Shown piece after piece: positions 15,543 to 62,684 of a DNA stretch of 64,000 nt (position 1 is its first letter; each line of letters starts with the position of its first letter). Source of the stretch: Chloroflexota bacterium (lineage in GTDB: Bacteria; Chloroflexota; Limnocylindria; QHBO01); contig QHBO01000043.1 of NCBI GenBank assembly GCA_003243965.1, positions 34,978 through 98,977 of the forward strand, read 5' to 3'. The notes beneath the pieces were generated by a model, which saw only the letters and a list, made by a program, of their open reading frames with translations, was not told where the DNA came from and ran no database searches. Made by a program: the position numbers and the translations under genes.

Positions 15543-15722
15543 CTACGCGCGCGTCGAAGCCTTTCGCTTCTTGGCTTCCTTGCGCTTGCGCTTCACGCTG
15601 GGCTTCTCGTAGTGCTCGCGGCGCCGTGCCTCGGCCAGGATTCCGGACTGCTGAATCTTCTTGTTGAAGCGGCGCAGCGCGCTCTCGAACGACTCGTTCT
15701 CACCCACGCGGACCTCTGCCAA
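15543..15722 (-). CDS. rpsU: 30S ribosomal protein S21 (59 aa)
   Basis: [41 protein letters not shown]. Start is TTG 15722 with GGAGG about 8 nt upstream. The 102-aa track ORF adds a spurious 43-aa head. Confidence 0.9.
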
Positions 15723-15785
15723 ACGGGTTCGCCTCCTTCCGCCCCTCAACGTCGCGTCGGCTTCGGCCGGCGCTGGAGCCCGCGG

Positions 15786-15814
15786 AGCATACAGTGGACC
15801 TGAACGAGGGTCAA
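15786..15814 (-). promoter_or_regulatory. Candidate sigma-70-type promoter of rpsU (TTGACC-N17-TATGCT)
   Basis: Minus strand has TTGACC (15814..15809), a 17-nt spacer, and TATGCT (15791..15786). It lies just downstream of the copA stop. Confidence 0.45.
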
Positions 15815-15819
15815 CGCGA

Positions 15820-39880: not shown

Positions 39881-40807
39881 CTACCCGCCCCTCCGCCCGA
39901 TCAGGCTCGACCAGTGGGAATGGGGATCGGCGCCCCCAGGGCTCGTGTCGATCTCCCAGAGCAGGTGGATGCCGGCCAGTCCGGCGTCGATGCAGCGTGC
40001 CTCCGCGGCCTCCTTTGCCGCGCCCTCCACGAAGGTCCCGTTGGTTCGCTGGGCATAGGCGGCGCAGATCGTCCCGGATCGCAGGCCCGCCAGCCCCGCC
40101 AACACGAAGAGCGCTGACGATTCCATCTCGAGGTTCGCGACGCGCTGGCGCCGCAGCTCCTCCGCGAGGTCAGGATAACGAACCGGGAGCGTGTGCATCG
40201 CCCTTCCCTGCGGAGCGTAGAACCCCGAGGCGGTGGCGGTCAGTCCAACGTGGTGGCGATACCCCAGCTCTCGGCAGGCCGCCTCCAGCGCCCAGACCAC
40301 ATCGCGGTGCGCGACTGCGGGGTAACCGTCGTGCACGTAGAAGCTGGTCGTGTTCTCGAGGCGCACCGCACCGATCGAGATCACGAGGTCGCCGAGCTCG
40401 ATCTCCGGCTGCAGCGCCCCGGAGGACCCGATGCGCACGAACGTCGGCGCGTCCGTGATCGCCATCGCTTCGGCGAGCACGATCTCGACGTTGTCGGTCC
40501 CCATTCCGGTCGACATCACCGACAGGCGCATGTCGCCCATGCGGCCGGTGGCGGTGGTGATCTCCCGGTTGCTGCGTTCGAGCTCGACCGCGTCGAAGCG
40601 CGAGGCCACCTTGGGGACGCGACCCGGATCCCCAACGAGGAGGACGTACTCGGCAAGCTCACCGCGCTGCAGGTCGATGTGATACTCCCGCTCGCCTGAG
40701 TGCGGAGCATCGGCGCGCGAGGGATCTGGCACCGATGGATTCTCCTTGCGCGGCCGAGGGTCCGGACCGGCGGGAGTATACCCCTGCCTCTGACCTGGAA
40801 TCACCAT
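39881..40807 (-). CDS. Nucleoside phosphorylase (PNP/UDP family 1, about 308 aa)
   Basis: YVLLVGDPGRV...MSTGMGTDNVEIVL...RIGSSGAL...ANLEMESSALF is the family-1 nucleoside phosphorylase pattern. ATG 40807 / GTG 40804 overlap the stop (40801-40803) of the upstream LTD gene. Confidence 0.75.
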   Translation of the reverse strand: MVIPGQRQGYTPAGPDPRPRKENPSVPDPSRADAPHSGEREYHIDLQRGELAEYVLLVGDPGRVPKVASRFDAVELERSNREITTATGRMGDMRLSVMSTGMGTDNVEIVLAEAMAITDAPTFVRIGSSGALQPEIELGDLVISIGAVRLENTTSFYVHDGYPAVAHRDVVWALEAACRELGYRHHVGLTATASGFYAPQGRAMHTLPVRYPDLAEELRRQRVANLEMESSALFVLAGLAGLRSGTICAAYAQRTNGTFVEGAAKEAAEARCIDAGLAGIHLLWEIDTSPGGADPHSHWSSLIGRRGG

Positions 40808-43500: not shown

Positions 43501-43583
43501 CACCGGTGATCGGCCGCTTATCGGAGGCTTAGCGCGCCCGCTGAGCTCCCCTCTCACCGGCGGGGTCGAGCTCACCATTCGCG

Positions 43584-43589
43584 TACAAT
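43584..43589 (+). promoter_or_regulatory. Candidate -10 box (TACAAT) 8 nt upstream of ATG 43598 (leaderless-type)
   Basis: Read directly as tacaat cgccgccc ATG, with no SD. Confidence 0.4.
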
Positions 43590-43597
43590 CGCCGCCC

Positions 43598-44275
43598 ATG
43601 TCGACCCGAACCCCCCGCCGCGACGAGGCATCTCGTGCCGAGGCCCGTCGCCGCGCCCGGCTTGCCGCGCAGGGACGACTGGAGACCGACGTGCTCGACG
43701 ATGAGCCGCCGCCGACCCCGCCACAGCGACCGTCGGCCGGCTTCCTCGAGCGCATCCTGCCCGCCGCCCCGGCCCTCCCGAACCGCCCGGATCCGCTTGC
43801 GGGCTTTGAGCACCGCGGTTCGGCGCGTGCACATGGCCTGCGCTCCGGTCTTTGGCTCCTTCGTCGGCGGTTCGTGATCTGGATCCCGGCCGGCATCCTG
43901 TTCGGCCTCAGCTACCTCCTGTCCAACCTGTACCAGGGAACGGTGCTGAACCTGATCGCCACCGGAATCTCCTTCGCCGCGCTCATCGGCGCCGGCTGGT
44001 TCGGTTGGGAGCGCCCGTGGCTCTTCGGCCTGGCCGCCTCGGTGGTCGGCTACGCGCTGTATCTCGGAGGCGTGGTCTATCTGCTCGGAACGGGAGGGGG
44101 CGCGGGGAGCCTGAAGCTGCTGGCCACCGCCAGCTTTGCGCTGTATGTGATCACCACCGGCTTCTTCCAGCTCGTGCTCGGCCTCTTCGGCGGTTTCTAC
44201 GGCGGCTACATCCGGCGCCGGCTGGCGGCCCAGCGGCACGCGCAGCCGGCCCGCCGATCAACGCGCGGTCGCTGA
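43598..44275 (+). CDS. Hypothetical integral membrane protein (225 aa)
   Basis: Arg-rich cytoplasmic N-terminus followed by about four hydrophobic helices (FVIWIPAGILFGLSYLL..., ATGISFAALIGAGWFGW..., LFGLAASVVGYALYLGG..., ALYVITTGFFQLVLGLFGGF). No family recognised. Confidence 0.55.
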   Translation: MSTRTPRRDEASRAEARRRARLAAQGRLETDVLDDEPPPTPPQRPSAGFLERILPAAPALPNRPDPLAGFEHRGSARAHGLRSGLWLLRRRFVIWIPAGILFGLSYLLSNLYQGTVLNLIATGISFAALIGAGWFGWERPWLFGLAASVVGYALYLGGVVYLLGTGGGAGSLKLLATASFALYVITTGFFQLVLGLFGGFYGGYIRRRLAAQRHAQPARRSTRGR

Positions 44276-47300: not shown

Positions 47301-48454
47301 CGCGTCGCGGCCTGGATCGCTGCATCGAGGACCCGGGCGCCATCGGTCGGGCCCGGCGCCCCTTCCGGATGGAACTGCACCGATGCGATTCGTCCGCTGC
47401 GGTGAACGAGTCCCTCGACGGTGTCGTCGTTGAGGTCGCGATGGCTGATCGCGAAGCCGGCGGCCGCCAGCTCCGGCCGCGCCAGGACCGCCACCTCGTG
47501 GTTGTGCGCGCCGATGTCGACTCGCCCGGTCGCGACCTCGATGACCGCATGGTTGCCGCCGTGATGCCCCACGCTGAGGCGCTGTGTCTGACAGCCTGCG
47601 GCGAGCGCCAGCAGCTGGTGCCCGAGGCAGATCCCCAGGATTCGAGGACCGCCGGCGATCGCTCCGCTCGACAGCTGGCGCACGACGGCGATCTGGCGTT
47701 CCATGCGAGCCGGGTCTCCAGGGCCCGGCGAGAGCACCACGAGGTCGGGGCGGATGGCGGCCACGTCGTCGGCAGCTGCACCGGGGGGCAGTCCGACGAT
47801 CTCCGCTCCACGTGCCGCGAGCGCCGCCAGCAGCGAGCGCTTCACGCCGTAGTCGATCAGCACCACCCGCAGCCGCCGCTCGCCGACCGGGGGGACGTGG
47901 AACGGCTGCTCGGTCGCGACCGCGGCGACGTGGTCCACCGACTCCCACGCGGCGGAGGCTCGGGCGGCCGCCACCGCGGGGGTGGCACCTCCGGCGGCCC
48001 GACGCACCACCGCGCGACGGGCAGCGCCGCGCCGGAGCTCGAGCGTCAGCGCGCGCGTGTCGACCCCGGTCAGGATCGGTATGCCCGCATCACGTGCCAT
48101 CCCTTCGAGGTCGAGCCCCGGGCCTGCCGGGGGGGCGACTAGCCTGGTGACGATCAGCGCCCGGGCATGAACGCGGCTGGACTCCAGGTCACCCGGGTCG
48201 ATCCGATAGCTGCCGGCCATCGGATGGGTGAGCACCACCATCTGACCGGCGTACGACGGATCGGTCAGGATTTCGCCCCAGCCAGTCGCCGCCGTGGTGA
48301 AGATCAGGTCGCCTTCGGCGGACGTGCCCGCGCCGCGCAGCATTCCGCGATGCGTGGCACCCCCCTCGAGCGCGACGAGGCCTGGAGACAGCAACGACGC
48401 CGAGCGCCCATCGGCAGCTGGCGTCGTAGGTTCCGGGGTGGTAAGCGTCTGCAA
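47297..48454 (-). CDS. carA: Carbamoyl-phosphate synthase small (glutaminase) subunit
   Basis: GWGEILTDPSYAGQMVVLTHPMAGSY and the GATase region GICLGHQLLALA...HNH. TTG start with a GGAAGGAG RBS. Confidence 0.92.
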   Translation of the reverse strand: MQTLTTPEPTTPAADGRSASLLSPGLVALEGGATHRGMLRGAGTSAEGDLIFTTAATGWGEILTDPSYAGQMVVLTHPMAGSYRIDPGDLESSRVHARALIVTRLVAPPAGPGLDLEGMARDAGIPILTGVDTRALTLELRRGAARRAVVRRAAGGATPAVAAARASAAWESVDHVAAVATEQPFHVPPVGERRLRVVLIDYGVKRSLLAALAARGAEIVGLPPGAAADDVAAIRPDLVVLSPGPGDPARMERQIAVVRQLSSGAIAGGPRILGICLGHQLLALAAGCQTQRLSVGHHGGNHAVIEVATGRVDIGAHNHEVAVLARPELAAAGFAISHRDLNDDTVEGLVHRSGRIASVQFHPEGAPGPTDGARVLDAAIQAATR

Positions 48455-48573: not shown

Positions 48574-49215
48574 ATGAGCACCGAAGCGCGCGGCCTCACC
48601 CACCGGACCGTTTCCATGACCCTCGCCGACGTCGTTGTCCCCCGACCCGGCGGCGGAGCGGTTGCGATCGCGCGCAACCTGGCCCTGGTGGTCGGCGGCG
48701 CGGCGCTGGTCGCGGCCGCAGCGCAGCTCTCGGTCCACATGCCGTGGACGCCGGTTCCGTATACCGGTCAGACGGCCGCGGTGCTGCTGGTCGGCACGGC
48801 CCTCGGCGCGCCGCTGGGCGCGGCCAGCATGGCGCTCTACGTGCTGGCCGGCTTCGTCGGCCTGCCGGTCTACGCCGATGGCGCCGGCGGCGCCGGCAAG
48901 CTGCTCGGCCTGACCGGCGGATATCTGCTCGGCTTCGTGGTTGCCGCCGCTCTGGTCGGATGGCTCGCCCAGCGGCGGTGGGACCGCTCACCGCTCCGCG
49001 CTGCCGCGCTGATGGCCATCGGCAATATCGTCATCTACCTGATCGGTATCCCGGTCCTTGCCGTGGTGGCCCACCTGCCCGCGGCGGTGGCCATCGAGAA
49101 GGGTGCACTCGTCTTCCTGCCCTGGGACCTGCTCAAGGTGGCGCTCGCCGGCCTGCTGCTGCCCGTCGCCTGGCGCCTCGTCGGCAACCGGGCGGATGGT
49201 ACCCGGCGAAGCTGA
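48574..49215 (+). CDS. bioY: Biotin transporter BioY (ECF S-component type)
   Basis: ...VPYTGQTAAVLLVGTALG...LTGGYLLGFVVAAALVGWL... is typical of BioY. GGAGGG RBS. Confidence 0.85.
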   Translation: MSTEARGLTHRTVSMTLADVVVPRPGGGAVAIARNLALVVGGAALVAAAAQLSVHMPWTPVPYTGQTAAVLLVGTALGAPLGAASMALYVLAGFVGLPVYADGAGGAGKLLGLTGGYLLGFVVAAALVGWLAQRRWDRSPLRAAALMAIGNIVIYLIGIPVLAVVAHLPAAVAIEKGALVFLPWDLLKVALAGLLLPVAWRLVGNRADGTRRS

Positions 49216-51377: not shown

Positions 51378-54300
51378 TCACCGGAACATGCGCTGCTGCC
51401 TGTCGAGCTGGAGCGGAGTGGGGCGCTGGCCGGGAATCGCGGCGTCGAGCGCGTGGATCTCGCGGGCCACCACGTTGCGCACCTCGCCCTCGACCTGCAG
51501 CCTGCCGTCGATCACCAGCAGCGGATGGCGATGGAGAAGCGACCGGTAGCGCTGGTACACCTGCGGTCGGACCGTCACGTTGATCATCCCGGTCTCATCC
51601 TCGAGAGCGATGAACACGAAGTGCTTGGCGGTCATCGGGTGCTGGATCGAGACGGCGAGGCCTGCCAGTCGCAGGCGAGACCGGCCCCGTCGCCGGCTCG
51701 CCTCGCTGATCCGCACCACCCCGCGAGCGTCGAGCTGCTCGCGGAACAGTTCGACGGCATGTGCCGTGGAGCTCACGCCCAGCTCCCGATAGTCGGTGGC
51801 GACACGTTCGGCGAGGGTCATCGCCGGCAGGCTGCGGCCCACGGCGCGGACCGCGTCATCGGTGAGGCCCAGGGCCGGACGCCTGGGATCGGCATCGACC
51901 AGCGTCGTGCGCAGCTGCCAGAGGAGCTCTCGGCGGGGCGTATCGGTCCAGTCGAAGGCGCCCACCGCGATCAGCCGCTCGACCACCTGCTCGCCCAGCC
52001 CGGTGCGGGCCGCGAAGTCACGGATACCGGTGTAGGGACCGATCGCCCGCTCCGCCTCGACCCGGTCGCGCTCCGCCTCGCCGATCCCCTTCACCTGGCG
52101 CAGCCCGAGACGCAGCGCGAAATCGCGGCGCGGGTCGCCGATCCGCTCGCCGATCGGCTCGGTGGCGTGATCCCAGCTCGAGGCATTCACGTCAACGGGC
52201 AGGACGCGCACGCCGTGCCGCTTCGCGTCGTTGACGATCACGGCCGGCGAGTAGAAGCCCATCGGCTGGTTGTTCAGGATCCCCGCGTAGTAGTGGACGG
52301 GGTAGTTGAGCTTCAGCCAGGCGGTGTCGTAGGTGATCTTGGCGAATGCCGCCGCATGGGCACGTGCAAACCCGAACTCGGCGAATGCCCCGCAGCGCCG
52401 GAAGAGCTCTTCCGCATCAGGCTCGCTCATGCCGGTCCGCATCGCCCCCGCCACGAATCGAGCGTGCTCATGCTCCATCTCGAGGTGTGACCGATGGCTG
52501 CCCATCGCCTTGCGGAAGATGTCCGCCTCAAGCGCCGTGTAGCCGCAGACCTCGATCGCGATCTGCATCACCTGCTCCTGGTAGAGGATCACCCCCAGCG
52601 TGTCGGCCAGGATCGGCTCGAGAGTCGGGTGGAGATAGGTGACCGGCTCCTGACCGGCACGCCGGCGCAGATACGGATGGACCGCGTTGCCCTGGATCGG
52701 TCCCGGGCGGATGATCGCCACCTGGACGACCAGGTCCTCGAAGCGCTCCGGACGGCTCTTGGGGAGCGCCTGCATCTGGGCGCGGCTCTCGATCTGGAAC
52801 ATGCCGACCGTGTCGGCGGCGCGGATGGTGGCGAACACCGCGGGGTCGTCACGGGGAAGCGCATCGAGGTCGATCCGGGTGCCGGTGTCGCGCGCCACCC
52901 GCCGCAGGCAGTCGCTCACCACGCCGAGTGTCCGCAGCGAGAGAAGGTCGATCTTCACCAGCCCCAGCGCCTCGATGTCCTCCTTGTCGAACTGGGTCAC
53001 CACCCGTCCGGGCATCGTGGCCCGCTCGATCGGCACCAGATCGATGAGGGGCGTCCGGGTGACGAGCATCCCCCCGACGTGGATCCCCAGGTGGCGCGGG
53101 AAGCCGTCAATCTCCGCGCACAGGGCGAGAAGCCACTGCCAGCGGTTGCGGGGCCGCGCGTGACGGTCCCTCTCCGGGAGGTCGCTGCGCCGGACGGTGG
53201 GGCGATCGCTTCCCGGCCCCGGCGATCCGGTGTCCCGCGGCTCGGGGAGATCCAGCGTCGCAGCCGGGTCGAACGGCGCAGGCTCGGGATCCCACCCGGG
53301 ATCCAACCCGGGACGCAGCCCGGGACGCAGCCCGGGACGCAGCCCGGTCGAGCCATAGCGCTTCGTCTGCTGCGCCTCGAACCGAACCGATGTGACCGAT
53401 TGGTCCAGGACCGGTGTCCGTTTCGGCGGGGACCAGTCGGCCTCACCGCCCGGCCGCGGCGCGGCGTCGGCATCGGTCTGGTTGGCCCGTCCGTCGCGCC
53501 GCGGCGGAACCGCTGCCGTCGCCATGCTGATGCCCAGCTCCTCGAAGAGCCACGCGAACGAGCCGTCCAGGGCGAGGTCACGCGCCACGTCGGAGGCATC
53601 CCGCGTGTCGAGCGCCTTCGCGAGGCGGTCGACCGCGGCGGCCGGAACGCCGAGCGCCTTGGCCACCTCGCGGACGGCACTGCGTGCGCGATAGGTGATC
53701 ACGTTGCAGACCATCGCCGCATGGTCGGCGCCATAGCGCCGGTAGAGGTACTGGATCACCTCTTCGCGCCGGTTGACGTCGAAATCGATGTCGATGTCGG
53801 GGAGGACGCGCGCCTCGTTGATGAACCGCTCGAAGAGGAGCTTGTGCTCGATCGGGTCGACCTTGGTGATCCCCAGGCAGTACGCCACGATCGAGTCTCC
53901 GGCGCTCCCCCTCCCCTGACCGATGATCTCGTTCTTGCGCGCGAACTCCATCAGGTCCCAGACGATGAGGAAGAACTCGGCCAGGTGCGTTCGGTCGATG
54001 ATCTCCAGCTCGTGGGTGAGCTGGGTCAGGGCCTGCTTGGTGATCGGCCGGTAACGGCGCCGTAAGCCCTCGTGTGCAAGCTGGTAGAGGTATGAGAACG
54101 GCGTCTCGCCCTCCGGCACCTCGAAGCCCGGAAATCGGTATCGCTCGAAGTCCAGGTCGAGGCGGCAGCTCTCACCGATGTCGGCGGCCTGGGCGATCCC
54201 CCGCGCCCAGGCGCGTCGCGATCGCGCGTCGGGAAGACCGGCGCCGAGCGCCGCCAGCTCACGCCCCGCCTTGAGGCGGTACTCCCCGTTCGGCAGGAGC

Positions 54301-55130
54301 AACTCGCGCGCCTCCTCGAGCGTGGCGCCATGCCGAATGCAGACCAGCACGTCCTGGAGCCGATGGCCGCCGGCCTCCGCGTAGTGGACCTCGTTGGTCA
54401 CCACCGTTGGCAATCCGGCCTCGTCGGCGATTTCCGCGAGCGAGGCCACCAGCCAGTCGTCGTCGGGGTCGAGGTGATGGCTCAGCTCGACGCAGAAGTC
54501 GCCGGCGGGGAAATGACGGGCCCACGCCGCGGCGGCAGCCAGCGCCTCGCCTCGCTCGCCGCTCAGGAGGAGCCGCGGGACCGCTCCATTCCGGCAGCCG
54601 GTGAGGCCCACCAGGTGGCCGCGCGCCTCGTCGAGCGCAGTCTCCACGCCGGCGCGATCGAAGACGGGGAACTGCTTCCCGCCGGCGAGGTGGCCGCGCG
54701 ACGCGAGGCGCGACAGGGCCGTGTAGCCCGCCGCGTCACGCGCCAGCAGGACGAGATGGTGGCCGGGGAGCGGGCCGGCGTGGTGCTCGCCGGGCCAGCC
54801 GCGGCTGGCGCGCTCGCCGCGAATCGGATCGTTGAGCCTGCGGCCACGTCTCGCGCGGCGCAGCTCCTCGTCACCGCTCGGGACCGCGAGCTCCATGCCG
54901 ATGATGGCACGCACCGGCCGAAGGCCGGTCCCCCGGGCCATATCGGTCTGGGTCTGCCGAGCGGCCCTGGAGAGCCGCACGGCGGCGTACAGCCCGGCGT
55001 GATCGGTGATCGCCAGTGTCGGCATCCCGAGAAGCGCGGCCCGGGCGACGAGATCCTCTGGGTGGCTGGCACCGTCAAGGAAGCTGAAGTTGCTGTGGGC
55101 GTGAAGCTCGCAGTAGCGATCGGCAACCAT
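51378..55130 (-). CDS. dnaE2: Error-prone DNA polymerase DnaE2 (ImuC), 1250 aa with a ~124-aa low-complexity insert
   Basis: PHP N-terminus YCELHAHSNFSFLDGAS (the DnaE2-type signature, distinct from DnaE1 HLHxHTEYS), ...FPRHLGIHVGGMLV..., and a C-terminal OB region. A LexA box lies upstream and imuB is nearby. Confidence 0.9.
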   Translation of the reverse strand: MVADRYCELHAHSNFSFLDGASHPEDLVARAALLGMPTLAITDHAGLYAAVRLSRAARQTQTDMARGTGLRPVRAIIGMELAVPSGDEELRRARRGRRLNDPIRGERASRGWPGEHHAGPLPGHHLVLLARDAAGYTALSRLASRGHLAGGKQFPVFDRAGVETALDEARGHLVGLTGCRNGAVPRLLLSGERGEALAAAAAWARHFPAGDFCVELSHHLDPDDDWLVASLAEIADEAGLPTVVTNEVHYAEAGGHRLQDVLVCIRHGATLEEARELLLPNGEYRLKAGRELAALGAGLPDARSRRAWARGIAQAADIGESCRLDLDFERYRFPGFEVPEGETPFSYLYQLAHEGLRRRYRPITKQALTQLTHELEIIDRTHLAEFFLIVWDLMEFARKNEIIGQGRGSAGDSIVAYCLGITKVDPIEHKLLFERFINEARVLPDIDIDFDVNRREEVIQYLYRRYGADHAAMVCNVITYRARSAVREVAKALGVPAAAVDRLAKALDTRDASDVARDLALDGSFAWLFEELGISMATAAVPPRRDGRANQTDADAAPRPGGEADWSPPKRTPVLDQSVTSVRFEAQQTKRYGSTGLRPGLRPGLRPGLDPGWDPEPAPFDPAATLDLPEPRDTGSPGPGSDRPTVRRSDLPERDRHARPRNRWQWLLALCAEIDGFPRHLGIHVGGMLVTRTPLIDLVPIERATMPGRVVTQFDKEDIEALGLVKIDLLSLRTLGVVSDCLRRVARDTGTRIDLDALPRDDPAVFATIRAADTVGMFQIESRAQMQALPKSRPERFEDLVVQVAIIRPGPIQGNAVHPYLRRRAGQEPVTYLHPTLEPILADTLGVILYQEQVMQIAIEVCGYTALEADIFRKAMGSHRSHLEMEHEHARFVAGAMRTGMSEPDAEELFRRCGAFAEFGFARAHAAAFAKITYDTAWLKLNYPVHYYAGILNNQPMGFYSPAVIVNDAKRHGVRVLPVDVNASSWDHATEPIGERIGDPRRDFALRLGLRQVKGIGEAERDRVEAERAIGPYTGIRDFAARTGLGEQVVERLIAVGAFDWTDTPRRELLWQLRTTLVDADPRRPALGLTDDAVRAVGRSLPAMTLAERVATDYRELGVSSTAHAVELFREQLDARGVVRISEASRRRGRSRLRLAGLAVSIQHPMTAKHFVFIALEDETGMINVTVRPQVYQRYRSLLHRHPLLVIDGRLQVEGEVRNVVAREIHALDAAIPGQRPTPLQLDRQQRMFR
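53283..53347 (-). repeat. In-frame 12-nt tandem repeat (cccgggacgcag x3 perfect, flanked by 2 diverged copies and a partial one) inside dnaE2
   Basis: Perfect copies at 53307-53318, 53319-53330 and 53331-53342. Diverged copies at 53283-53294 and 53295-53306. Encodes GLRPGLRPGLRPGLDPGWDP on the minus strand. Confidence 0.9.
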
Positions 55131-55138
55131 TCGACGCT

Positions 55139-55160
55139 ATGTTATAGAACATCCGTTCGA
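55139..55160 (-). promoter_or_regulatory. LexA (SOS) box GAAC-N4-GTTC overlapping a TATAAC/TAACAT -10 box 8-10 nt upstream of the dnaE2 ATG
   Basis: Minus strand reads TTCGAACGGATGTTCTATAACATagcgtcgaATG. CGAACGGATGTTCT matches the Gram-positive consensus CGAACRNRYGTTYC at 13 of 14 positions and is close to the mycobacterial TCGAAC-N4-GTTCGA. No SD. Confidence 0.75.
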
Positions 55161-55169
55161 ACCGAATTC

Positions 55170-55862
55170 CTATCCGTGAGCCAGATCCTCGCGTCCGTCA
55201 CGCAGCCTCAGCCGACGCTCGAACGTACTGGCCACTCGCTCGTCATGCGTGGCGACTACCAGCGCGAAGTGCGCTTCTTGCCGAAGCTCCTCGAGCAGCC
55301 CGACGACGCGATCCCCCGATACCGAATCCAGGTTGCCAGTGGGTTCGTCTCCGATGACCAGGCCCGGTTGATTTATCAGCGCCCGCGCGATGGCCACTCG
55401 TTGCTGCTCGCCAGCTGAGAGCTGGCTGGGACGATGGCTGAGGCGGTTCGCCAGGCCCAGACGAGCCAAGAGCTGCTGTGCACGGTCCTCGATCTCAACT
55501 CGGCGCCGATATGGGAGGAGCGGCACAGTAACGTTGTCCAAGGCGGATAGAGCGGGAATGAGGTGGAACATCTGGAAGATGAAACCGACGTGAGCTCTCC
55601 GCAGCTCGGCCCGCTCGTCCTCGTCGGTGCCGTCGACTGTTTGGCCCGCGACCACCACCCGGCCCTCGTCCGGCATATCTAGAAGTCCCATCAAACCGAG
55701 CAACGTCGTCTTGCCGGCCCCTGATGGGCCGGTTATCGCCAGTCGCTCCCCGGCCCCCACGCAGACGCTCAAGCCCCGGATCGCCACGATCGCCGCGTCT
55801 CCGGTTCCGTAACGTCGCCAGACGTCGTGCAGTTCAACAACTGCCGACTGGCGTTCCGTCAC
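55170..55862 (-). CDS. ABC transporter ATP-binding protein (MacB/LolD/FtsE-like)
   Basis: Walker A GPSGAGKTT, Q-loop, signature LSAGEQQR and Walker B LVIGDEPTGNLD. The GTG start overlaps the permease stop (GTGA). Confidence 0.9.
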   Translation of the reverse strand: MTERQSAVVELHDVWRRYGTGDAAIVAIRGLSVCVGAGERLAITGPSGAGKTTLLGLMGLLDMPDEGRVVVAGQTVDGTDEDERAELRRAHVGFIFQMFHLIPALSALDNVTVPLLPYRRRVEIEDRAQQLLARLGLANRLSHRPSQLSAGEQQRVAIARALINQPGLVIGDEPTGNLDSVSGDRVVGLLEELRQEAHFALVVATHDERVASTFERRLRLRDGREDLAHG

Positions 55863-58800
55863 GGCCGGCGTGCCAGGAGCGCCGTGGCGCGGACCAGACC
55901 AGTCGCTAGCTGCGCCAACGCTTGCCCATCCAGCTGCTCAGCGCGATCGACCGGGGTCCCGCTGACCGATGCCGGTCCCGTCCCGGGAATGAGCGGCTCG
56001 CCTACGTACGCCGCATCAATCCCAACAGCGAGCGGGTAGGCATTGTCCACCAAGTCATCGGTCGTCGGCAGCGCCAATGTCTGCGATAAAGAGTTCAGCA
56101 AGGCGCTCGAGGTTTGAACACTGCCGGCGACCCGCGCGCTTCGGTCGAGCCAGCTCCCCACGCGATTGTCGAGGGCCGTCGTGGCGAGCAGGCCTGCGCG
56201 GAGCGCCGGCGCGTCCGTCTTTACCGGCCCGCGCGTGCCGATCACCGCGCCGACCGTGCCACCAGCAGGGCCGACGTACACTGCGGACCCGCCGGACTGG
56301 AACAACAGCCGACTGACGACGGAGGTCACCGACCCTTCGGCGGCCGTCGCGATCACGATCCCTGCCGGGAGGCTGGCGGTGCGCAGCTGGCGCGCGGCTT
56401 CGAGAACAAGCGCCGTCGGGCCAGCGCTCTGCGACGCACCTGGACCGGTTGAATCGAGACTGGCAACCAACCACATCATGCGGGCGGGCAGCGGACCGGA
56501 TGGGATCGCGACGAGATCCTCCCCAACGGCAAAGCGCGCCGTCGTGGCAGATCGCAGCTGATCCCAGGCGTCTGGCGTCGCCCGGACTGCGACTACTGCG
56601 GGAACAGTTGAGCTGCAGCGCAATGCGTATTCCGCTGCAAGAGGAGCCTGGCTGTCGCTCTCGACGCGCAGCAGCGCCGCGCCGCGCACGCAGCCGGCCT
56701 GCAGCTTTCCTGGTCGGAGATCGACCAAGGCGACCGGGAGCTGCACCTGGCCGGTTGTCTGCAGAGCCATGGTGTAGGCGACCGCTACGGGAAACACGTC
56801 CGCCACGGGCAACCTCTGACCGGACCGCATACGCAGGTCGAGCCCTCGCACGAGGAACCGCCGAACCTGCACGATGTATCCCAGCGCCTCCAATCGGGAC
56901 CGTACGACGGCCATCGCAGCGACCATTGAGGCCGAGGCCGCGGAGCGATCAACGTGTGCGGCGATTGAGGCCGCATCGCGCAGGATGCGCTGTTGATCGG
57001 CCGGAAGCGGGGGGCTTGTGGGTGCACCTGTGACAGACCCAGCGGAGGCGCCCTGGGGAGCCAGCGCGGCCCACCCCAGACTCGTGCCCGCGATGAGCAC
57101 CAACGCAAGGCCAATGCTCATCAAGGTGGCTCGCATCGTTAGCGTGGGCAATGCATCGCTGGCACCCTCCGCGCGAATCGCCACCAGCGGCGGCACGCTA
57201 GCAGCTGCTCCGGCCGCCGCCGCCGCGGCCGCGGCGGCGAGGAAGCCCGCGGCCGGAACGGCAACCAGACCCAGCGCAGCGCCCAACACCGCGGCCCCGA
57301 TGCCGGCTCCAATGAGGGTCACGGCAGTAGCCGCCAAGATGCCCGCGCCCACAGCCGGCAGACAGGATTCGAGAATCACCAGATCACGGAGCGTCGAGCG
57401 ACGCCATCCGGCTGCACGCAGTACTCCGATAACACCGATCCGCCGCTCAACGCCAAGAATCGCCGTGTTGAGCACGATGGCCGCCGCCGCGAGAAGGGCT
57501 CCGGCGGCGGCCAGAAAGTGATAAGGAGCGATCTTCACCCTCACGAGCTGGCCTAGGACGGTGGCGCGAAGATCTCCGCCCCCCGCCGTCCCGATCAGAC
57601 CGACAATCCCAGCAAGGGCAACCGCGACGCCCATTGCCAACATGAGCAGCGCCGTGCGGAGCCTAATCTCCCCGATCAGGGCGAGAGCCAGCCCGGCGAC
57701 CGAGGTCCGCAACCCCGGAGCTAGGCGCCCCCTCCCCCGGGATGGTCCGACCCGGGCGAAGCGTTCAGAAAGCGGGCCGGCCATCAGCCCGCCTGCTACC
57801 AGATGGCCCAGCAAGATGGCGCCGAGCAGCAGCGCCGTACCAACTGAGAACGGCGGCTGGCCCAGTGCGACCTCCAGGCTGCCGGTGATAAGAAGCACCA
57901 GCAGTGCGCTCGGCACAGCGACGATCGCAGCCTGGAGCGCGACGAGCGTGAGTAACTCTCGCTTACGCCATCCCACGTAGCGCAGCGTCGCGAATTCTGA
58001 ACGCTGGTCCCCAGCGAGATACGCACCGAAACCGATGAGGTAGGCAACAGCCACACCGATCGCCGCGAGGAGCATCGCGAGCGATGCTCCGCTTGCAGCA
58101 CTCTCGATAGCCGGAGCCGTACCGAGGGTGGTCCATGGTTCGATGAGGGGACCGATCCCCTGCACGTCGACGGCCAAGAGGATCGGCGAAGCGCCAGCGA
58201 CGACATCCACTCGCAGCCCCGTCCGCTCAACGATGGCTGCCGCGACGTCTTCGATGCGTGCCAGAGCCACTTTGTCGTAACCGTGGACCCCGGATACGCG
58301 CACCCGAACAGCGTCAATGAACCGGGGGCCCCGCACGAATTCGGCGGCTTCAAGGTTGGTGATGCCGACCGGCGGCGGCGGGTTGAGGCCACCGGGATTC
58401 AGCGATGGAGGCAGTGGCCTACCGCCGAGCATCCGCGGCACAACGCCGTACAGGCCGAGGGGGACGTAGTTCGCAGTTCGGTTTAGCCGGGTTTCGATAC
58501 TTGTTAGATCCACCGAGCCTGTCTGCTCGAGCACGAACGGCGGTGGCTTGAGCACCCTGAGATTGCGATACAGTGGCTCGTCTGCACCATTGGCCCGATT
58601 CGGCCCGAGCTTTCCAGGATCGGTGGCCGCTTCCAGGGCGGGACGAACGAGCTTGTCCCAGGTCCCAAGCGGACGCAGTTGCAGTCGATCGCCCGGGCCA
58701 TGGCTATAGTCGAGCGGACCGTCAACGAGGACGACGGCGCGCTCTGCACCGTACCCAGGTGCATAGGACTCCGCGGCTCCTGTGAGCCTGCCGTCCGCGC

Positions 58801-59803
58801 CGAGACTGACCCTCGCCGGCCGCAAGGGCGGCACCAGTGCTTCGAACGTTGCGGTGTCATTCGCCCGAGTGGCCTGCGATGCTCCGTTGACGACCTTCTG
58901 CGCCGCTGTGATCGTGGCCTGGCGATAGGCTGCCAGCCCTTGCGTGTCGCGAGGTTTCGGCACCGCGTCTGCTGCAGCGCCGACAGCCTCGGGCGGGACG
59001 CCCGAGATCTGCGTCACGCGAACGGACACCGTGCCAGGAACAGTTGATCGAGCATCGACTACGACTGGTAACTGCGTGGCTGAGCGGTTGTACTGGGAAT
59101 CGAACGTTTGGCGCAGTCCGCGGTCGAGTGCACCCCTGACATACCGTCGAAGCCCCACCAGTTCGTCCTCAGCGGGCGGATCCACCGCTACCACGTGGCC
59201 CCAGGTCGATGGCAATTGCCCCGTCGAGAGAACGGTGCGCCCGTCGGGAACGTAGGCGTAGTTGCTGATGCCCACCCCCAATGGACGCCGTGTCACCCGC
59301 TCAACTCCAAAGAAGGCACTGGCGTTCATCACGCTGCGTCCGCGGATCTGCACCGACACATTGATACGGAACAGGTCACCTGGCTTGACGCGCGCAAGCT
59401 CGACGGTCATGGGAGGACCACCAAGAGTGAACCAGCCGATCGTACTCACCGGGGCGGCGACCTCCACGGCTGGCAGGCTCGAAATCTCCTGCCACTCTCG
59501 TCGACTTATCCCCTCCGCACCCGGCTCGCCTAGAAACGAGTACGGCACGCCTTCGCCGATGCCCGGCAGCCGCATCGCGGCGGCTCCCTTAGGTCGCACC
59601 AGAATGTCATACGTTCCCCGCCAGCGTTGTTGGATCGTCTGCCGAACGGTCGCCAGTTGCCCGTTGGCGGCGAGGAGCAATCCCGACGCCGAGAGACCTA
59701 TGGCGGCGGCGCCCACGAGCATGACGACAACCCGCGTGGGCCGCGCGAACAGAAGTCGCCGGGCTAGGCTCGCCTGACGCCCGAGTAACGCCAGTCGGGT
59801 CAC
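55859..59803 (-). CDS. Giant FtsX-family ABC permease (1314 aa): large N-terminal ectodomain, two FtsX TM blocks, an extra TM helix and a C-terminal M28-peptidase-like (degenerate) ectodomain
   Basis: N-terminal TM VVVMLVGAAAIGLSASGLLLA followed by a ~520-aa extracytoplasmic region. Two multi-TM FtsX-like blocks. A TM helix MSIGLALVLIAGTSLGWAALA. The final 400 aa show M28-like motif spacing (see findings). GTG start 59803. Confidence 0.75.
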   Translation of the reverse strand: MTRLALLGRQASLARRLLFARPTRVVVMLVGAAAIGLSASGLLLAANGQLATVRQTIQQRWRGTYDILVRPKGAAAMRLPGIGEGVPYSFLGEPGAEGISRREWQEISSLPAVEVAAPVSTIGWFTLGGPPMTVELARVKPGDLFRINVSVQIRGRSVMNASAFFGVERVTRRPLGVGISNYAYVPDGRTVLSTGQLPSTWGHVVAVDPPAEDELVGLRRYVRGALDRGLRQTFDSQYNRSATQLPVVVDARSTVPGTVSVRVTQISGVPPEAVGAAADAVPKPRDTQGLAAYRQATITAAQKVVNGASQATRANDTATFEALVPPLRPARVSLGADGRLTGAAESYAPGYGAERAVVLVDGPLDYSHGPGDRLQLRPLGTWDKLVRPALEAATDPGKLGPNRANGADEPLYRNLRVLKPPPFVLEQTGSVDLTSIETRLNRTANYVPLGLYGVVPRMLGGRPLPPSLNPGGLNPPPPVGITNLEAAEFVRGPRFIDAVRVRVSGVHGYDKVALARIEDVAAAIVERTGLRVDVVAGASPILLAVDVQGIGPLIEPWTTLGTAPAIESAASGASLAMLLAAIGVAVAYLIGFGAYLAGDQRSEFATLRYVGWRKRELLTLVALQAAIVAVPSALLVLLITGSLEVALGQPPFSVGTALLLGAILLGHLVAGGLMAGPLSERFARVGPSRGRGRLAPGLRTSVAGLALALIGEIRLRTALLMLAMGVAVALAGIVGLIGTAGGGDLRATVLGQLVRVKIAPYHFLAAAGALLAAAAIVLNTAILGVERRIGVIGVLRAAGWRRSTLRDLVILESCLPAVGAGILAATAVTLIGAGIGAAVLGAALGLVAVPAAGFLAAAAAAAAAGAAASVPPLVAIRAEGASDALPTLTMRATLMSIGLALVLIAGTSLGWAALAPQGASAGSVTGAPTSPPLPADQQRILRDAASIAAHVDRSAASASMVAAMAVVRSRLEALGYIVQVRRFLVRGLDLRMRSGQRLPVADVFPVAVAYTMALQTTGQVQLPVALVDLRPGKLQAGCVRGAALLRVESDSQAPLAAEYALRCSSTVPAVVAVRATPDAWDQLRSATTARFAVGEDLVAIPSGPLPARMMWLVASLDSTGPGASQSAGPTALVLEAARQLRTASLPAGIVIATAAEGSVTSVVSRLLFQSGGSAVYVGPAGGTVGAVIGTRGPVKTDAPALRAGLLATTALDNRVGSWLDRSARVAGSVQTSSALLNSLSQTLALPTTDDLVDNAYPLAVGIDAAYVGEPLIPGTGPASVSGTPVDRAEQLDGQALAQLATGLVRATALLARRP

Positions 59804-59823
59804 GTGCGGGTGCGTAACGGGCT

Positions 59824-59844
59824 GGCCACGGCAGGCCCGTGGCC
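59824..59844 (-). other. Perfect 8-bp stem / 5-nt loop hairpin (GGCCACGG-CAGGC-CCGTGGCC) in the 61-nt spacer between the small secreted-protein gene and the permease gene
   Basis: Read directly. There is no U-tract after it on the minus strand, so it is not a canonical intrinsic terminator. Confidence 0.6.
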
Positions 59845-59864
59845 CCGGGTTCTAGCGTAAGCCG

Positions 59865-60245
59865 CTAGTACTGAAGATATACGGAGGTATAGCTCCAACT
59901 GCTCGTTCCACCGCCGGCGCGGCTGGCCCTGCGGCTCTGCGTTAGGTAGACATTGTTGCCGCAGACGGCGAACGTGCGATTTTGCGTATAACTGGTCGAA
60001 CCTGAGACTGACAAGACGTTGGAGTAGCCATCTCCCCAGTTGGTGGTGACAGTCCACGGACCGCTGGTGCCACCCGCGAGGTACACCGTCCAGGTGGCGT
60101 GTGGCGGACAGCCCGAGGAGGTTTGGCTTGCCGGGGAGGCAGACACACTCGTGGGATACCCTGCGAGCGCGAATCCGGCGATCGTGAGGGTCAACAGGAG
60201 ACCTAAGAGACCGGCGACGATCACGCGGTGAATGCGAATGCCCAT
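59865..60245 (-). CDS. Small secreted protein (126 aa), hypothetical
   Basis: ATG 60245 with GGAGGG 7 nt upstream. Signal peptide MGIRIHRVIVAGLLGLLLTLTIAGFALAG. Mature part is Ser/Thr/Gly/Tyr/Trp-rich (beta-rich look) with two Cys. Noticeably AT-richer than the neighbours. The overlapping 162-aa track ORF in another frame is rejected. Confidence 0.65.
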   Translation of the reverse strand: MGIRIHRVIVAGLLGLLLTLTIAGFALAGYPTSVSASPASQTSSGCPPHATWTVYLAGGTSGPWTVTTNWGDGYSNVLSVSGSTSYTQNRTFAVCGNNVYLTQSRRASRAGGGTSSWSYTSVYLQY

Positions 60246-60291
60246 GGCCGATCCCTCCGAAGCACCAAGAGAAAGCCAAGCCAACCACATC

Positions 60292-60319
60292 AGGATAGCA
60301 TTTATCGATACGTCGTCAA
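60292..60319 (-). promoter_or_regulatory. Strong sigma-70-like promoter (TTGACG-N16-TGcTATCCT) for the secreted-protein/permease/ATPase genes
   Basis: Minus strand reads TTGACG (60319..60314) acgtatcgataaatgc TATCCT (60297..60292). It lies in the only AT-rich patch of the region, which contains the palindrome TATCGATA. Confidence 0.55.
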
Positions 60320-60446
60320 TATATCAGTCACCGCCCTCCGACCTCGGGAGTCCCGCGGGCGATCAGCCGGTTGGCCCTGGCGGCCGCCGTCCGTGGACAC
60401 CTCCGCAGCTTCCGGCGATGTTCGGCCATCGACCGGCCGAAATGGC

Positions 60447-61445
60447 TCAGTCGGCCGCGGTGTGCCCCTGAGTAGTCCCATCGGGCGTCGCTTGCGCCAG
60501 CGCCTCCAGCACCCCGAGGTGCTCCGTGGTGCCGTCCGGCGCGAGCGGGATGATGGCCACGTGGTCCGCGCCCGCTTCCCGCATGCCGGAGGTGCGCGCG
60601 CGGAGGGCATCGGCGTCTCCCCAGGCGACCATGGCGTCGACCAGACGATCGCTCCCCGGCTTCTCCCAGTCGGACGCGTCGAAGCCCTGCTGCGTCCAGC
60701 TCGCCAGGTAGTTCGGGACGCGCAGGTACGGCGCCAAGTAGGCGCGTGCCGCGGTGCGCGCCGCGGTGGGATCGCGCTCCAGAACGCACGGCATGGTCAC
60801 CGCCAGCAGCGGCCGGTCTGGGGAAGCTGCTCCGGGAGGCGCCCCGGTGGACTCGGCACCCGCCTCGTCGATTCGATCCCGCATCCAGGCCAGCCGCTGC
60901 GGCGTGACCAGGTACGGAAAGGCGCCATCGGCATCGGTCGCCGCCAGGCCGAGCATCCGCGCACGGAGCGCCGCCACCAGCACCGGCGGCTCGTCCAGGC
61001 GCTCGCTGCCGGGACCCCGGTAGATCGCGGCGCGATAGGCGGCCAGGTACTCGCGCATCCGGGTCAGCGGCTTCTCGTAGACGTGGCCCCGCAGACGCTC
61101 GGCGAGGTGCGCGTGAGAGACGCCCAGGCCGAGCACGAAACGCCCGCCGGACGCCTCCTGGAGGGTCATCGCGCCCATTCGGGTCGCCTGCGCATCGCGG
61201 CCCCAGATCGAGATGATGCTCGTCCCGAGGGCGATCCGCGAAGCCTCGCCGCAGGCCAGCGCCAACAGCGTGAAGGGCTCGCGGCCGACCGTCTCGGGCA
61301 CCCACAGGGCGCCGTAGCCCAGCTCGTCGGCACGCCGAACGTAGGCGCGCAGCGCGTTGCCGTCCAGCGAGTCGAGATGACCCCAGACACCGATCCGGCC
61401 GATCCGCGCAGCGGCCGGGTGGTCGGCCTGACCGGTCACGGCCAC
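60447..61445 (-). CDS. LLM-class (luciferase-like) flavin/F420-dependent oxidoreductase
   Basis: RIGVWGHLD...ELGYGALWVPETVGREPF...RFVLGLGVSH is typical of the LLM class F420-dependent family. It overlaps the upstream stop by 10 nt. Confidence 0.75.
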   Translation of the reverse strand: MAVTGQADHPAAARIGRIGVWGHLDSLDGNALRAYVRRADELGYGALWVPETVGREPFTLLALACGEASRIALGTSIISIWGRDAQATRMGAMTLQEASGGRFVLGLGVSHAHLAERLRGHVYEKPLTRMREYLAAYRAAIYRGPGSERLDEPPVLVAALRARMLGLAATDADGAFPYLVTPQRLAWMRDRIDEAGAESTGAPPGAASPDRPLLAVTMPCVLERDPTAARTAARAYLAPYLRVPNYLASWTQQGFDASDWEKPGSDRLVDAMVAWGDADALRARTSGMREAGADHVAIIPLAPDGTTEHLGVLEALAQATPDGTTQGHTAAD

Positions 61446-62245
61446 GCCTCGTCCGGCGGGTCGGCCGGCGTGAACCGATAGCGAAGGTAGAGCTCATCCC
61501 CGGCGCGGTGGACGCTCACCAGGCGGCCCGCTCTGGGCTGTTCCGCGAACGGCGAGCCGCCGCTCACTGGCGAGATCATGCGCAGCGCGTCGGTCCCCAG
61601 CAGCTTGCCGGTGATGGTCAGGTACACCTCGTCGAGCGCGTCTGCGGCGAGGAAGGAGGCGTTGAGCGTCGGGCCGCCCTCGAGCAGAACCGAACCGATC
61701 CCGCGCGCCGCCAGCGCGGCGAGGATCCAGCCCGGCGCGGGTCGATCGGTCGGGGCGACGAGCAGCTCCGTCCCTTCGGGAAGCGGCGGTGCATCGGGCT
61801 CGGCAAGCGGGCTCGTGGCACCCACGATCACGATCCGGGGCGCCGGGTGGCCGAACCAGGTCGCATCCACCGGAACCGGCCGGGTGCCCGCGACCAGCAC
61901 CTCTGTCGGCTGCGACGATTGCCCGCGGCGGACGCGCAGGTCGGCGAGATCGGGCGGCACGCCGGGCCACAGCCCGCTGTCGCGCAGCGTGCCCGCCCCG
62001 CTGGCCACGGCGTCGTATGGCGCGCGCAGCCAGCGCATGAGCCTCCGATCGGTTCGCGAACTGAGACCGCTGGTCGTTCCCCGTATCTGTGCTCGCCCAT
62101 CCAGCGAGGTGACCATGTTGAGTCCCACCACGGGCCGCGGCCCCCCCGGCGGCGGCAGGCGCAGGGATCCGAGGGCGACCTCGAGCTCCAGGCCCAGGGC
62201 CGGCTCCGGCCAGAGACGGTCGATGCGCGGGCCGGGGGTGTACAT
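61436..62245 (-). CDS. RibD C-terminal domain / dihydrofolate-reductase-like family protein
   Basis: VVGLNMVTSLDGRAQ...SRTDRRLMRWLRAPYDAV..VLLEGGPTLNASFLAADALDEVYLTI is the RibD_C reductase pattern. Confidence 0.7.
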   Translation of the reverse strand: MYTPGPRIDRLWPEPALGLELEVALGSLRLPPPGGPRPVVGLNMVTSLDGRAQIRGTTSGLSSRTDRRLMRWLRAPYDAVASGAGTLRDSGLWPGVPPDLADLRVRRGQSSQPTEVLVAGTRPVPVDATWFGHPAPRIVIVGATSPLAEPDAPPLPEGTELLVAPTDRPAPGWILAALAARGIGSVLLEGGPTLNASFLAADALDEVYLTITGKLLGTDALRMISPVSGGSPFAEQPRAGRLVSVHRAGDELYLRYRFTPADPPDEAWP

Positions 62246-62273
62246 GCCGGCATGGTAGTCGCGGCGACCCGCG

Positions 62274-62684
62274 TCAGCCGCCTGGGGCGCTGTACTCCTC
62301 GGTCGACTCGAGGCCGGCGGCGTCGAGCGTCACCTGCACGCGAGACGGCGTCAGCAGGGCAACCCTGTCGGCGGCCACCATTCGGGGACGACCGCCCGCA
62401 TCGGGAGTGACGGCGATGCCGTGGAAGATGCCTTCATCGGTGCCGAGCATCTCGTCGACACGACCGATGCGATTGCCGCTCGGGTCGACGACCTCGGTGC
62501 CCGGCTGCACGTAGCTCCAGGCGACGGGGTCGTTCGGGCCGGGGAGATCCAGCTCGGAGGCGTGTGGCTCGGCGGAGCCGGTGTCGTCAGCGGTATCGCC
62601 GGGTGGCGTGGTGCGCGGCTCGGGCGGGCCGCCGCTGGTCGGCCCCGGGGTGTCGATCGACGGGTAGTTGTCGAGATCGGTCAT
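62274..62684 (-). CDS. PRC-barrel domain-containing protein (136 aa)
   Basis: Start is ATG 62684. Acidic/Pro-rich N-terminus, then GTEVVDPSGNRIGRVDEMLGTDEGIFHGIAV...VAADRV, a PRC-barrel-like pattern. The track extension overlaps the upstream gene. Confidence 0.55.
   Translation of the reverse strand: MTDLDNYPSIDTPGPTSGGPPEPRTTPPGDTADDTGSAEPHASELDLPGPNDPVAWSYVQPGTEVVDPSGNRIGRVDEMLGTDEGIFHGIAVTPDAGGRPRMVAADRVALLTPSRVQVTLDAAGLESTEEYSAPGG

Follow-up and report, generated by a model that had tools for sequence, protein, structure and literature searches.

In a 64,000-nt stretch of the Chloroflexota (Limnocylindria) contig QHBO01000043.1 (assembly GCA_003243965.1, positions 34,978 to 98,977; hereafter the window), three co-directional minus-strand genes lying upstream of dnaE2 encode a small secreted protein, a giant permease with two FtsX modules and an ATP-binding cassette (ABC) ATPase (Table 1). 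The machine has firmly the type VII ABC (MacB/FtsX) fold, and it is very likely that the operon, hereafter the cassette, is an accessory and laterally acquired unit with the type VII architecture described below. What is new is this architecture, namely a double-FtsX chain with a ninth transmembrane (TM) helix, a 520-aa outer domain, a fused pseudo-peptidase and a recurrent small secreted partner; the superfamily is known. Our best explanation as a whole, from architecture and acquisition to a mechanism and a guessed producer/immunity role, has in our view somewhat less than an even chance of being right. A first-pass annotation, made from the sequence letters, had described the three genes as an island of lower GC content. 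The gene coordinates and lengths that it gave are correct, and the GTGA overlap between the ATPase start and the permease stop, by which it had coupled these two genes, is present in the sequence.

Two FtsX stretches were detected in the permease by Pfam. Hydropathy and an AlphaFold2 (AF2) model of residues 1-930 (44-sequence alignment; predicted local distance difference test, pLDDT, 87.7; predicted TM-score, pTM, 0.83) both give nine TM helices, from TM1 (residues 25-47) to TM9 (residues 886-914). The permease thus shows the features of a type VII ABC permease, namely an FtsX module of four TM helices whose first and second helices (TM1 and TM2) enclose a large outer domain. The second FtsX module (TM5-8) has an outer loop of only 12 aa, and the single chain with two modules is a built-in pseudo-heterodimer. 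The inner loops are rich in K and R, and the extra TM9 places residues 918-1314 outside. Foldseek matches of the model were LolE/LolC, MacB, a Streptococcus pneumoniae Spr0694-type permease, YbbP, HrtB, YtrF, FtsX and BceB, with TM-scores that were low because the outer domain is far larger. In a PDB sequence-profile search, matches were confined to the TM parts of type VII ABC permeases, and the 520-aa outer domain had no sequence-detectable relative among solved structures. Pfam, the AF2 model, Foldseek and the PDB profile therefore agree on the giant FtsX permease that had been called from the sequence. In several long-read-derived metagenome-assembled genomes (MAGs), the homologous permease is split into two open reading frames (ORFs) or frameshifted (L009 10404-14326, L018, and L022); these are probably assembly errors and not real gene splits.

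The ATPase carries Walker A, the Q-loop, the signature LSAGE, Walker B with the catalytic Glu, and the H-loop. Its best NCBIfam matches were LolD (2e-66), MacB (8e-64) and YbbA (1e-62), and further matches were FtsE, DevA, DarD and the lactococcin-972-type exporter ATPase TIGR03608 (1.6e-47). These matches support the initial assignment to the MacB type. All the scores were below the curated NCBIfam cut-offs (e.g. 223 against 308 bits for LolD, 184 against 265 bits for FtsE, and 162 against 255 bits for TIGR03608). Therefore, we rejected the possibility that the ATPase is an equivalog of LolD, MacB, YbbA, FtsE, DevA or DarD, as it would be in an FtsEX, LolCDE or MacB system. None of the three cassette proteins reaches the cut-off of a characterised transporter family, in line with the first-pass expectation, and PADLOC returned only generic ATPase matches.

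The C-terminal extracytoplasmic domain of the permease is probably related to M28 aminopeptidases. A profile of 11 family members matched the PA-domain aminopeptidase 2ek8 (E = 1.5e-5) and the keratinase KP1 (8ac9; E = 2.6e-5) in three colinear pieces. Weaker matches were SGAP, glutaminyl cyclases and transferrin receptor, all of which have the M28 fold, as have nearly all of the 50 profile matches. The Pfam M28 family was recovered below threshold in four of the 11 members (best E = 8e-4). An insert of about 100 aa with two invariant Cys residues stands where the PA domain stands in PA-domain M28 aminopeptidases, and its position and size fit a PA domain. When aligned with 2ek8, the M28 motif H-H-D-S..P-G-A-N-D-D-A-S-G reads x-L-D-S-t-G-P-G-A-t-Q-S-A-a in the family, and S-L-D-S and G-A-S-Q-S in the window permease, indicating that neither the first His ligand nor the bridging Asp is retained. 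By inspection, the other three zinc ligands also appear to be lost: the Glu-Glu position is unconserved, the second Asp is Gly (LGPLGG), and the second His is Asn. The zinc-binding set His-Asp-Glu-Asp-His plus the catalytic Glu is accordingly not intact in the domain, and an active M28 peptidase was rejected because the ligands are lost. Loss of metal ligands with retention of scaffold motifs is a hallmark of binding-only members of the M28 fold. The sequence thus gives good support to an outward-facing, putatively catalytically dead M28-like pseudo-peptidase, as had been proposed in the first-pass annotation; the similarity lies below the Pfam threshold and is supported by the family profile. 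The domain differs from other M28-fold proteins in its sub-threshold Pfam M28 score and in that a TM helix joins it to an ABC permease as part of one chain.

The small secreted protein has a Sec-type signal peptide (residues 1-28, with a predicted cut between ALA and G after residue 28). After cleavage, about 98 residues remain, with many S, T, G and Y, hardly any charge, and no membrane anchor or lipobox. Across 19 family members, C95 is invariant and its pair C46 is present in at least 90%; W52 is invariant, as is a GG pair within a GGTSG-like motif. Most of the members have a (Y/W)GDG motif, and an ASRxGGGT-like motif lies near the C-terminus. The AF2 model is an eight-strand β-sandwich (pLDDT 87 overall, about 97 for the mature part), which together with the signal peptide bears out the secreted mini-protein of the first-pass annotation. 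The top Foldseek match of the model was the PKD domain 4xed (E = 3e-4; TM-score 0.47/0.58), followed by immunoglobulin V domains. The family profile matched PKD-repeat proteins with E-values down to 5e-11, although Pfam reported no family at E ≤ 0.1 and the protein is hence below the PKD threshold. Both the fold and remote homology thus place the small protein firmly as a Sec-exported single PKD-like β-sandwich. It resembles PKD domains in its W...GDG motif, but stands alone as a single domain with its own conserved Cys pair and ASRxGGGT motif. An exhaustive profile search of 1.84 billion representatives yielded only 67 related proteins. About 55 of them are stand-alone proteins of 90-175 aa and about 10 are giant multi-repeat proteins, five of which were scanned and proved to be PKD-repeat proteins by Pfam.

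The composition of the cassette deviates from that of the window. Its GC content is 65.9%, against 70.6% in the remaining window, and no other 5.2-kb stretch in the window is lower. The GC content at third codon positions (GC3) is 0.723, 0.727 and 0.724 in the three genes (z = -4.3 to -4.4), the lowest among the called window genes of 150 aa or more. The reference for these values was 35 other window genes of at least 150 aa in correct frames (0.866 ± 0.032, minimum 0.78). The log-likelihood of the synonymous codons of the cassette genes under the codon usage of the window is also low (z = -4.1 to -5.0). Tetranucleotide distance is maximal at 55001-60000 (0.232). Elsewhere it lies between 0.09 and 0.167, and the second-highest value (0.167) belongs to 57501-62500, which overlaps the cassette. 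The lower GC content noticed at first, including four hand counts of 60-nt lines that are exact (30, 36, 39 and 42), is therefore confirmed, and the composition is not uniform.

A scan for relatives of dnaE2 revealed a candidate empty site. In L031, a 2.6-kb soil metagenome contig, dnaE2 and the luciferase-like monooxygenase (LLM) gene are 79% and 70% identical in DNA sequence to those of the window, and the gap between them is about 510 bp instead of 5375 bp; the comparison rests on this one short contig. The L031 gap holds an ORF for a lipoprotein-like protein of 131 aa and, before dnaE2, a conserved LexA box (AGAACgcatGTTC) of the kind seen in the window. The ORF (L031 871-1266) has the lipobox LLAAC and is without a homolog in the window. 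In the more distant relatives L030, L033 and L035, an ImuB-like gene lies directly upstream of dnaE2. From these observations, the cassette either was inserted between LLM and the dnaE2 operator or has replaced what lay there; the LexA/Cheo-type box CGAACggatGTTC of the operator marks its right edge. In the window, the ORF from 62991 that runs off the end is ImuB-like (IMS_C), and a 196-aa ORF, a RibD_C protein and LLM lie between it and the cassette. The first-pass annotation had placed the cassette exactly between a native-looking gene string beginning with imuB and the LexA-boxed promoter of dnaE2. Its position upstream of the LexA-boxed dnaE2 stands; the insertion point, however, is that between LLM and dnaE2, and the stretch from imuB to LLM is itself missing in the more distant relatives. 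The adjacency of imuB and dnaE2 in these relatives indicates that the slot accumulates insertions, and foreign DNA is evidently tolerated at the site that immediately precedes the dnaE2 SOS box.

Gene order around the cassette is not conserved in relatives. Locus L008 has the same gene order as the window with 99-100% amino acid identity throughout; it represents the same species or strain and is uninformative on synteny. Its cassette (99% identical) shares the whole synteny of the window and is not a donor. No dnaE2, LLM or RibD gene was found beside any other locus homologous to the cassette. The window contains no tRNA gene, and, as had been noticed at first, no integrase, no transposase and no direct repeat is seen at the cassette; nor is it delimited by an inverted repeat. 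Only 10 nt separate the end of the cassette from the LexA box. At this place L031 has a TTGA-type -35 element, and the native -35 element of dnaE2 may have been replaced. The 39 nt that lie between the ATPase stop and the start of dnaE2 contain no terminator, and transcription of the cassette could continue into dnaE2, the gene of a mutagenic polymerase.

Full-length homologs of the permease are rare, forming about 16 clusters in 5.8 billion proteins. Exact-sequence look-ups with the window permease and with the protein P0001 gave no contig. With one genome per species, GTDB contained 13 loci, all of them in Chloroflexota MAGs labelled Candidatus Limnocylindrales or "uncultured Chloroflexia". 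Permease and ATPase genes are adjacent and colinear in every locus. The flanks share no gene family across the loci, none recurring in three or more. Plasmids gave two weak partial matches to the permease (the neighbour of one being unrelated) and none to the small protein, and no relative of the cassette was found in the viral contigs of IMG/VR. In L003, genes for a type IV secretion system coupling protein (TrwB/TraG), a single-stranded DNA-binding protein and a resolvase are found no more than 10 kb away from the cassette (5635-7281 and 22627-23253), which suggests that its context is an element of the conjugative or integrative kind. Two full cassettes, each with small gene, permease and ATPase, stand in tandem in a single Chloroflexia MAG (L021, on the same contig as L010; 4408-9599 and 13838-18806); they are clearly diverged from each other and match the outer domain of the window permease at 46% and 41%.

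The small gene lies directly upstream of the permease in nine cassettes and survives as a frameshifted remnant in a tenth. It is missing in L012/L017, L015, L019, L020 and L022, and the tree of the outer domain requires at least three independent losses of the gene with the transporter retained. At some loci, its place is taken by a cupin gene or by a GerE-type regulator with TM segments. GerE/LuxR-type regulators lie directly upstream of the cassette in L012 (9216-9947), L020 (9179-9655) and L009 (9391-9858); in L012/L017 and L020 they stand where the small gene would be expected, and TM segments are predicted in L012/L017. In L001, the small gene has an additional copy (15600-16000 minus; L013 15540-15945), which lies on the other strand at a distance of 1 kb downstream from the cassette. 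This copy, with 79% identity to the small protein that the cassette encodes, is split into two ORFs and is probably a decaying paralog.

Roughly 30 relatives of the permease are about 900 aa long. Relatives of this length, which do not have the M28-like domain, are also preceded by a gene for a signal-peptide protein (124 or 151 aa), with a similar YGDG-type motif, and followed by an ATPase gene. It follows that the trio of small protein, giant FtsX permease and ATPase came first. Fusion of the pseudo-peptidase happened later, in a single branch, and a cassette can do without a small gene in cis. The first-pass annotation had named the fused M28-like domain and the upstream small protein as candidate partners of the transporter. 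Both are present and the small gene is recurrent; the two are, however, separable in evolution, so that neither is an obligatory partner of the other.

By kinship with type VII systems (MacB, LolCDE, FtsEX, YbbAP, HrtBA and YtrEF), with which the cassette shares the MacB/LolD-type ATPase, the FtsX four-helix module and an outer domain between TM1 and TM2, a mechanotransmission mode of action is expected. It differs from them in the ninth TM helix, the two FtsX modules per chain, the unmatched 520-aa outer domain and the M28-like C-terminus. Two copies of the ATPase would dock on one permease chain, and ATP binding and hydrolysis would shift the TM helices, whose movement the stalk helices would pass on to the outer domains. 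No substrate would need to pass the membrane through the permease. The work done outside may instead be the binding and displacement of a protein or peptide ligand at the membrane surface, with the dead peptidase domain as a ligand-binding clamp. The M28-fold pseudoenzymes transferrin receptor and nicastrin are ligand binders, and if the domain is indeed a clamp, it would represent a bacterial counterpart of these proteins coupled to an ATP motor. Characterised type VII ABC systems are few, and each performs a different work outside the membrane: efflux, lipoprotein extraction, amidase activation or lipid hydrolysis.

The outer parts are large and conserved, and M28 pseudoenzymes have a history as ligand binders. 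These two points and the operon layout point to a protein-type ligand and to a logic of antagonism and immunity, as do the transporter-only loci, the paralogous cassettes in one genome and the decayed copy of the small gene in L001. We tentatively suggest, by analogy with the lactococcin 972 operon and with target protection of the BceAB type, that the cassette may be a pair of the producer/immunity type. In such a pair, the small secreted protein would act as an antagonist or a binding factor, which the ABC machine would keep, alone or in complex with its target, off the envelope of the producer. Transporter-only genomes would then be carriers of an orphan immunity. Several features were counted for such a pattern: the small gene heads the operon and has a promoter of its own and a strong ribosome-binding site; the transporter is retained after at least three losses of the small gene; two divergent cassettes stand in tandem in one MAG, and L001 has the decayed extra small gene; membrane-anchored GerE regulators stand upstream at some loci; and the lactococcin 972 operon shares the three-part layout. 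In a bolder version that we regard as rather unlikely, the cassette is a new class of type VII machine, in which ATP drives a dead M28-type receptor and a giant outer domain to capture a cognate PKD-like protein and eject it from the cell's own surface, as a self-immunity or release device that is mobile among soil Chloroflexota as a three-gene unit.

Literature searches on FtsX with M28, on fused domains of type VII systems and on Limnocylindria found nothing that describes this architecture, which agrees with the first-pass remark that its author knew of no described system of such composition. Among the closest known systems, the lactococcin 972 operon (lcn972-orf2-orf3, under one promoter) encodes a Sec-dependent small β-sandwich protein, a large membrane protein and a MacB-type ATPase, and the transporter is taken as an immunity device (PMC4055356). 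The cassette has the same three-part layout and its ATPase matches TIGR03608, but its permease is twice as large, with nine TM helices and the FtsX fold instead of the 7-TM immunity protein. Membership in the lactococcin-972 family was rejected: the small protein has no match to the family, the permease has nine TM helices, and the ATPase score is below the cut-off as given above. The structure of lactococcin 972 is not among the 50 best Foldseek matches listed for the small protein. Another is Escherichia coli YbbAP-TesA, described as a single-chain double-FtsX permease working with an extracytoplasmic protein of hydrolase fold (PMC12646458). YbbA is the third-best match of the ATPase and YbbP is among the Foldseek matches, with a weak similarity to the cassette permease (TM-score 0.19-0.21). 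TesA is a separate and active lipid hydrolase, whereas the hydrolase-fold module of the cassette is fused and without metal ligands.

Several observations weigh against the explanation that we favour. For three of the five ligands, the substitution was judged by eye, the M28 assignment consists of a profile match at E around 1e-5 and the reading of a motif, and the insert at the PA position had neither a PDB profile match nor a Pfam PA match. The small protein falls outside the lactococcin_972 family in both Pfam and NCBIfam and shows no known toxin fold. It diverges (37-46%) equally with the outer domains of the permease (36-46%), which fits a co-evolving partner as well as a toxin and does not discriminate among the models. 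As to acquisition, no sampled homolog from beyond this species or strain comes closer than 52% identity, and the GC3 of homologous cassettes is below that of their flanks in L001, L004, L009 and L019 also (it is not in L003, L012, L014, L018 and L021). The recurrence of low GC3 in other hosts means that composition alone overstates the recency of the transfer, and part of the lower GC3 may be a property of the cassette family.

Among the alternatives, client handling survives best, and we hold it to be doubtful but worth serious consideration. The small PKD-like protein would be the cargo or partner of the machine, captured after Sec export and then released, handed on or assembled at the surface, much as LolCDE transfers lipoproteins to LolA and MacAB expels the Sec-exported enterotoxin STII. 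In favour of it, every characterised type VII ABC system is paired with a dedicated extracytoplasmic protein (PMC12646458 and PMC5985334). The small gene is likewise found upstream in the nine M28-bearing cassettes and in the relatives of about 900 aa, small protein and outer domains diverge in step, and a first gene under a strong promoter suits a product needed in excess. However, at least three losses of the small gene with the whole transporter kept would be odd for an obligatory client. In addition, the mature protein has no membrane anchor or lipobox, and the cassette encodes no adaptor or outer-membrane component.

The cassette might also be an ordinary resistance or efflux pump of the MacB or BceAB kind, directed against an external antimicrobial peptide or lipid, with the small protein incidental or a minor accessory, but this is distinctly unlikely. 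The resemblance of the ATPase to those of MacB, YbbA, DevA and bacteriocin exporters, the accessory and patchy distribution, the regulators upstream at some loci and the existence of transporter-only loci would all suit a pump. Yet about 920 conserved extracytoplasmic residues, including a dead peptidase domain, are far beyond the known pumps of this kind, and the small gene co-occurs too regularly, over two permease architectures, to be incidental. BceAB itself has a single-chain double-FtsX permease and two ATPases, and its role in accessory, inducible defence of the envelope would fit the distribution. BceB, a marginal profile match, has 10 TM helices, carries its outer domain after TM7 and before TM8, and is served by a cognate two-component system, BceRS; the cassette permease has nine TM helices, with the outer domain after TM1, and no two-component system is consistently adjacent. 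On TM count, outer-domain position and the lack of conserved neighbour genes, the BceAB architecture was rejected.

Control of wall remodelling in the manner of FtsEX is improbable. In such a system, the outer domains, the M28-like one among them, would bind peptidoglycan stem peptides or activate a wall hydrolase, with the small protein as an adaptor. M28 enzymes bind peptide N-termini, the fold is type VII, FtsE is among the ATPase matches, and genes for a LysM protein and other peptidases occur in some neighbourhoods. The FtsE match is, however, below its cut-off, no hydrolase gene is conserved next to the cassette, and the cassette, which is missing in a close relative, duplicated in one genome and set in variable contexts, behaves as an accessory element unlike core division genes.

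Least credible of all is that the three genes are native, owing their low GC3 to low expression or to the codon bias of membrane proteins, and were lost from L031: the low GC3 of cassettes in other hosts, the lack of an integrase, repeats or tRNA and a nearest homolog so distant (52%) that no recent donor is visible would agree with it, but GC3 and codon usage deviate alike in all three genes, those of the soluble ATPase and the secreted protein included, the neighbourhood is different in every genome, the imuB-dnaE2 adjacency in distant relatives marks an insertion-prone slot, and the L003 cassette lies beside genes of conjugation and recombination.

The features of the locus are listed in Table 1. 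The longest ORF of the small gene extends to 60290 on the minus strand. The promoter TTGACG-N16-TATCCT proposed in the first-pass annotation is present and is the sole sigma-70-like match within the 5.8 kb from 54900 to 60700; since shuffled sequences average 0.7 matches, the match by itself is weak, suggestive evidence. Of the two hairpins in the spacer before the permease, CUAGCG/CGCUAG spans the stop codon and the second is GGCCACGG-5-CCGUGGCC. They may form an attenuator; their stability was not significant against shuffles (z = -1.69), and there is no T-run. An Rfam scan of 54900-60700 gave no match.

Table 1 Features of the cassette and its borders in the window
Feature	Position	Strand	Description
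dnaE2	51378..55130
LexA/Cheo-type box of dnaE2	55147..55159	minus	CGAACggatGTTC (CGAAC-N4-GTTC); 10 nt past the ATPase stop
ATPase gene	55170..55862	minus	230 aa; MacB/LolD-type ABC, motifs intact
Permease gene	55859..59803	minus	1314 aa; 9 TM, two FtsX modules in a single chain
C-terminal extracytoplasmic M28-aminopeptidase-like domain	55862..57052	minus	Residues 918-1314, about 400 aa
TM2-TM9	57053..58093	minus	Residues 571-917; rest of FtsX module 1, FtsX module 2, extra ninth TM
Extracytoplasmic domain between TM1 and TM2	58094..59662	minus	Residues 48-570, about 520 aa; highly conserved motifs
Spacer before the permease	59804..59864	minus	61 nt; two short hairpins
Small secreted protein gene	59865..60245	minus	126 aa counted from ATG
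Shine-Dalgarno sequence GGAGGG	60253..60258	minus	7 nt ahead of the small-gene ATG (60245); read from the sequence
Promoter-like TTGACG-N16-TATCCT	60292..60319	minus	TG preceding the -10 element
Left junction	60320..60446	minus	127 bp from the LLM stop (60447) to the cassette promoter; composition shifts here
LLM (luciferase-like monooxygenase)	60447..61445

Two other genes of the window have unusual features. DnaE2 contains a low-complexity insert of about 130-150 aa (GLRPGLRPGLRPGLDPGWDPEP...) at 53135-53540 (residues ~530-665), at which alignments with other DnaE2 proteins break. An ORF of 1031 aa (40801-43896), adjoining carB (44508-47948) and bioY (48574-49215), has an unusually high GC content at second codon positions (GC2; 0.68) and showed a lamin-tail domain and a match to an OB-fold.

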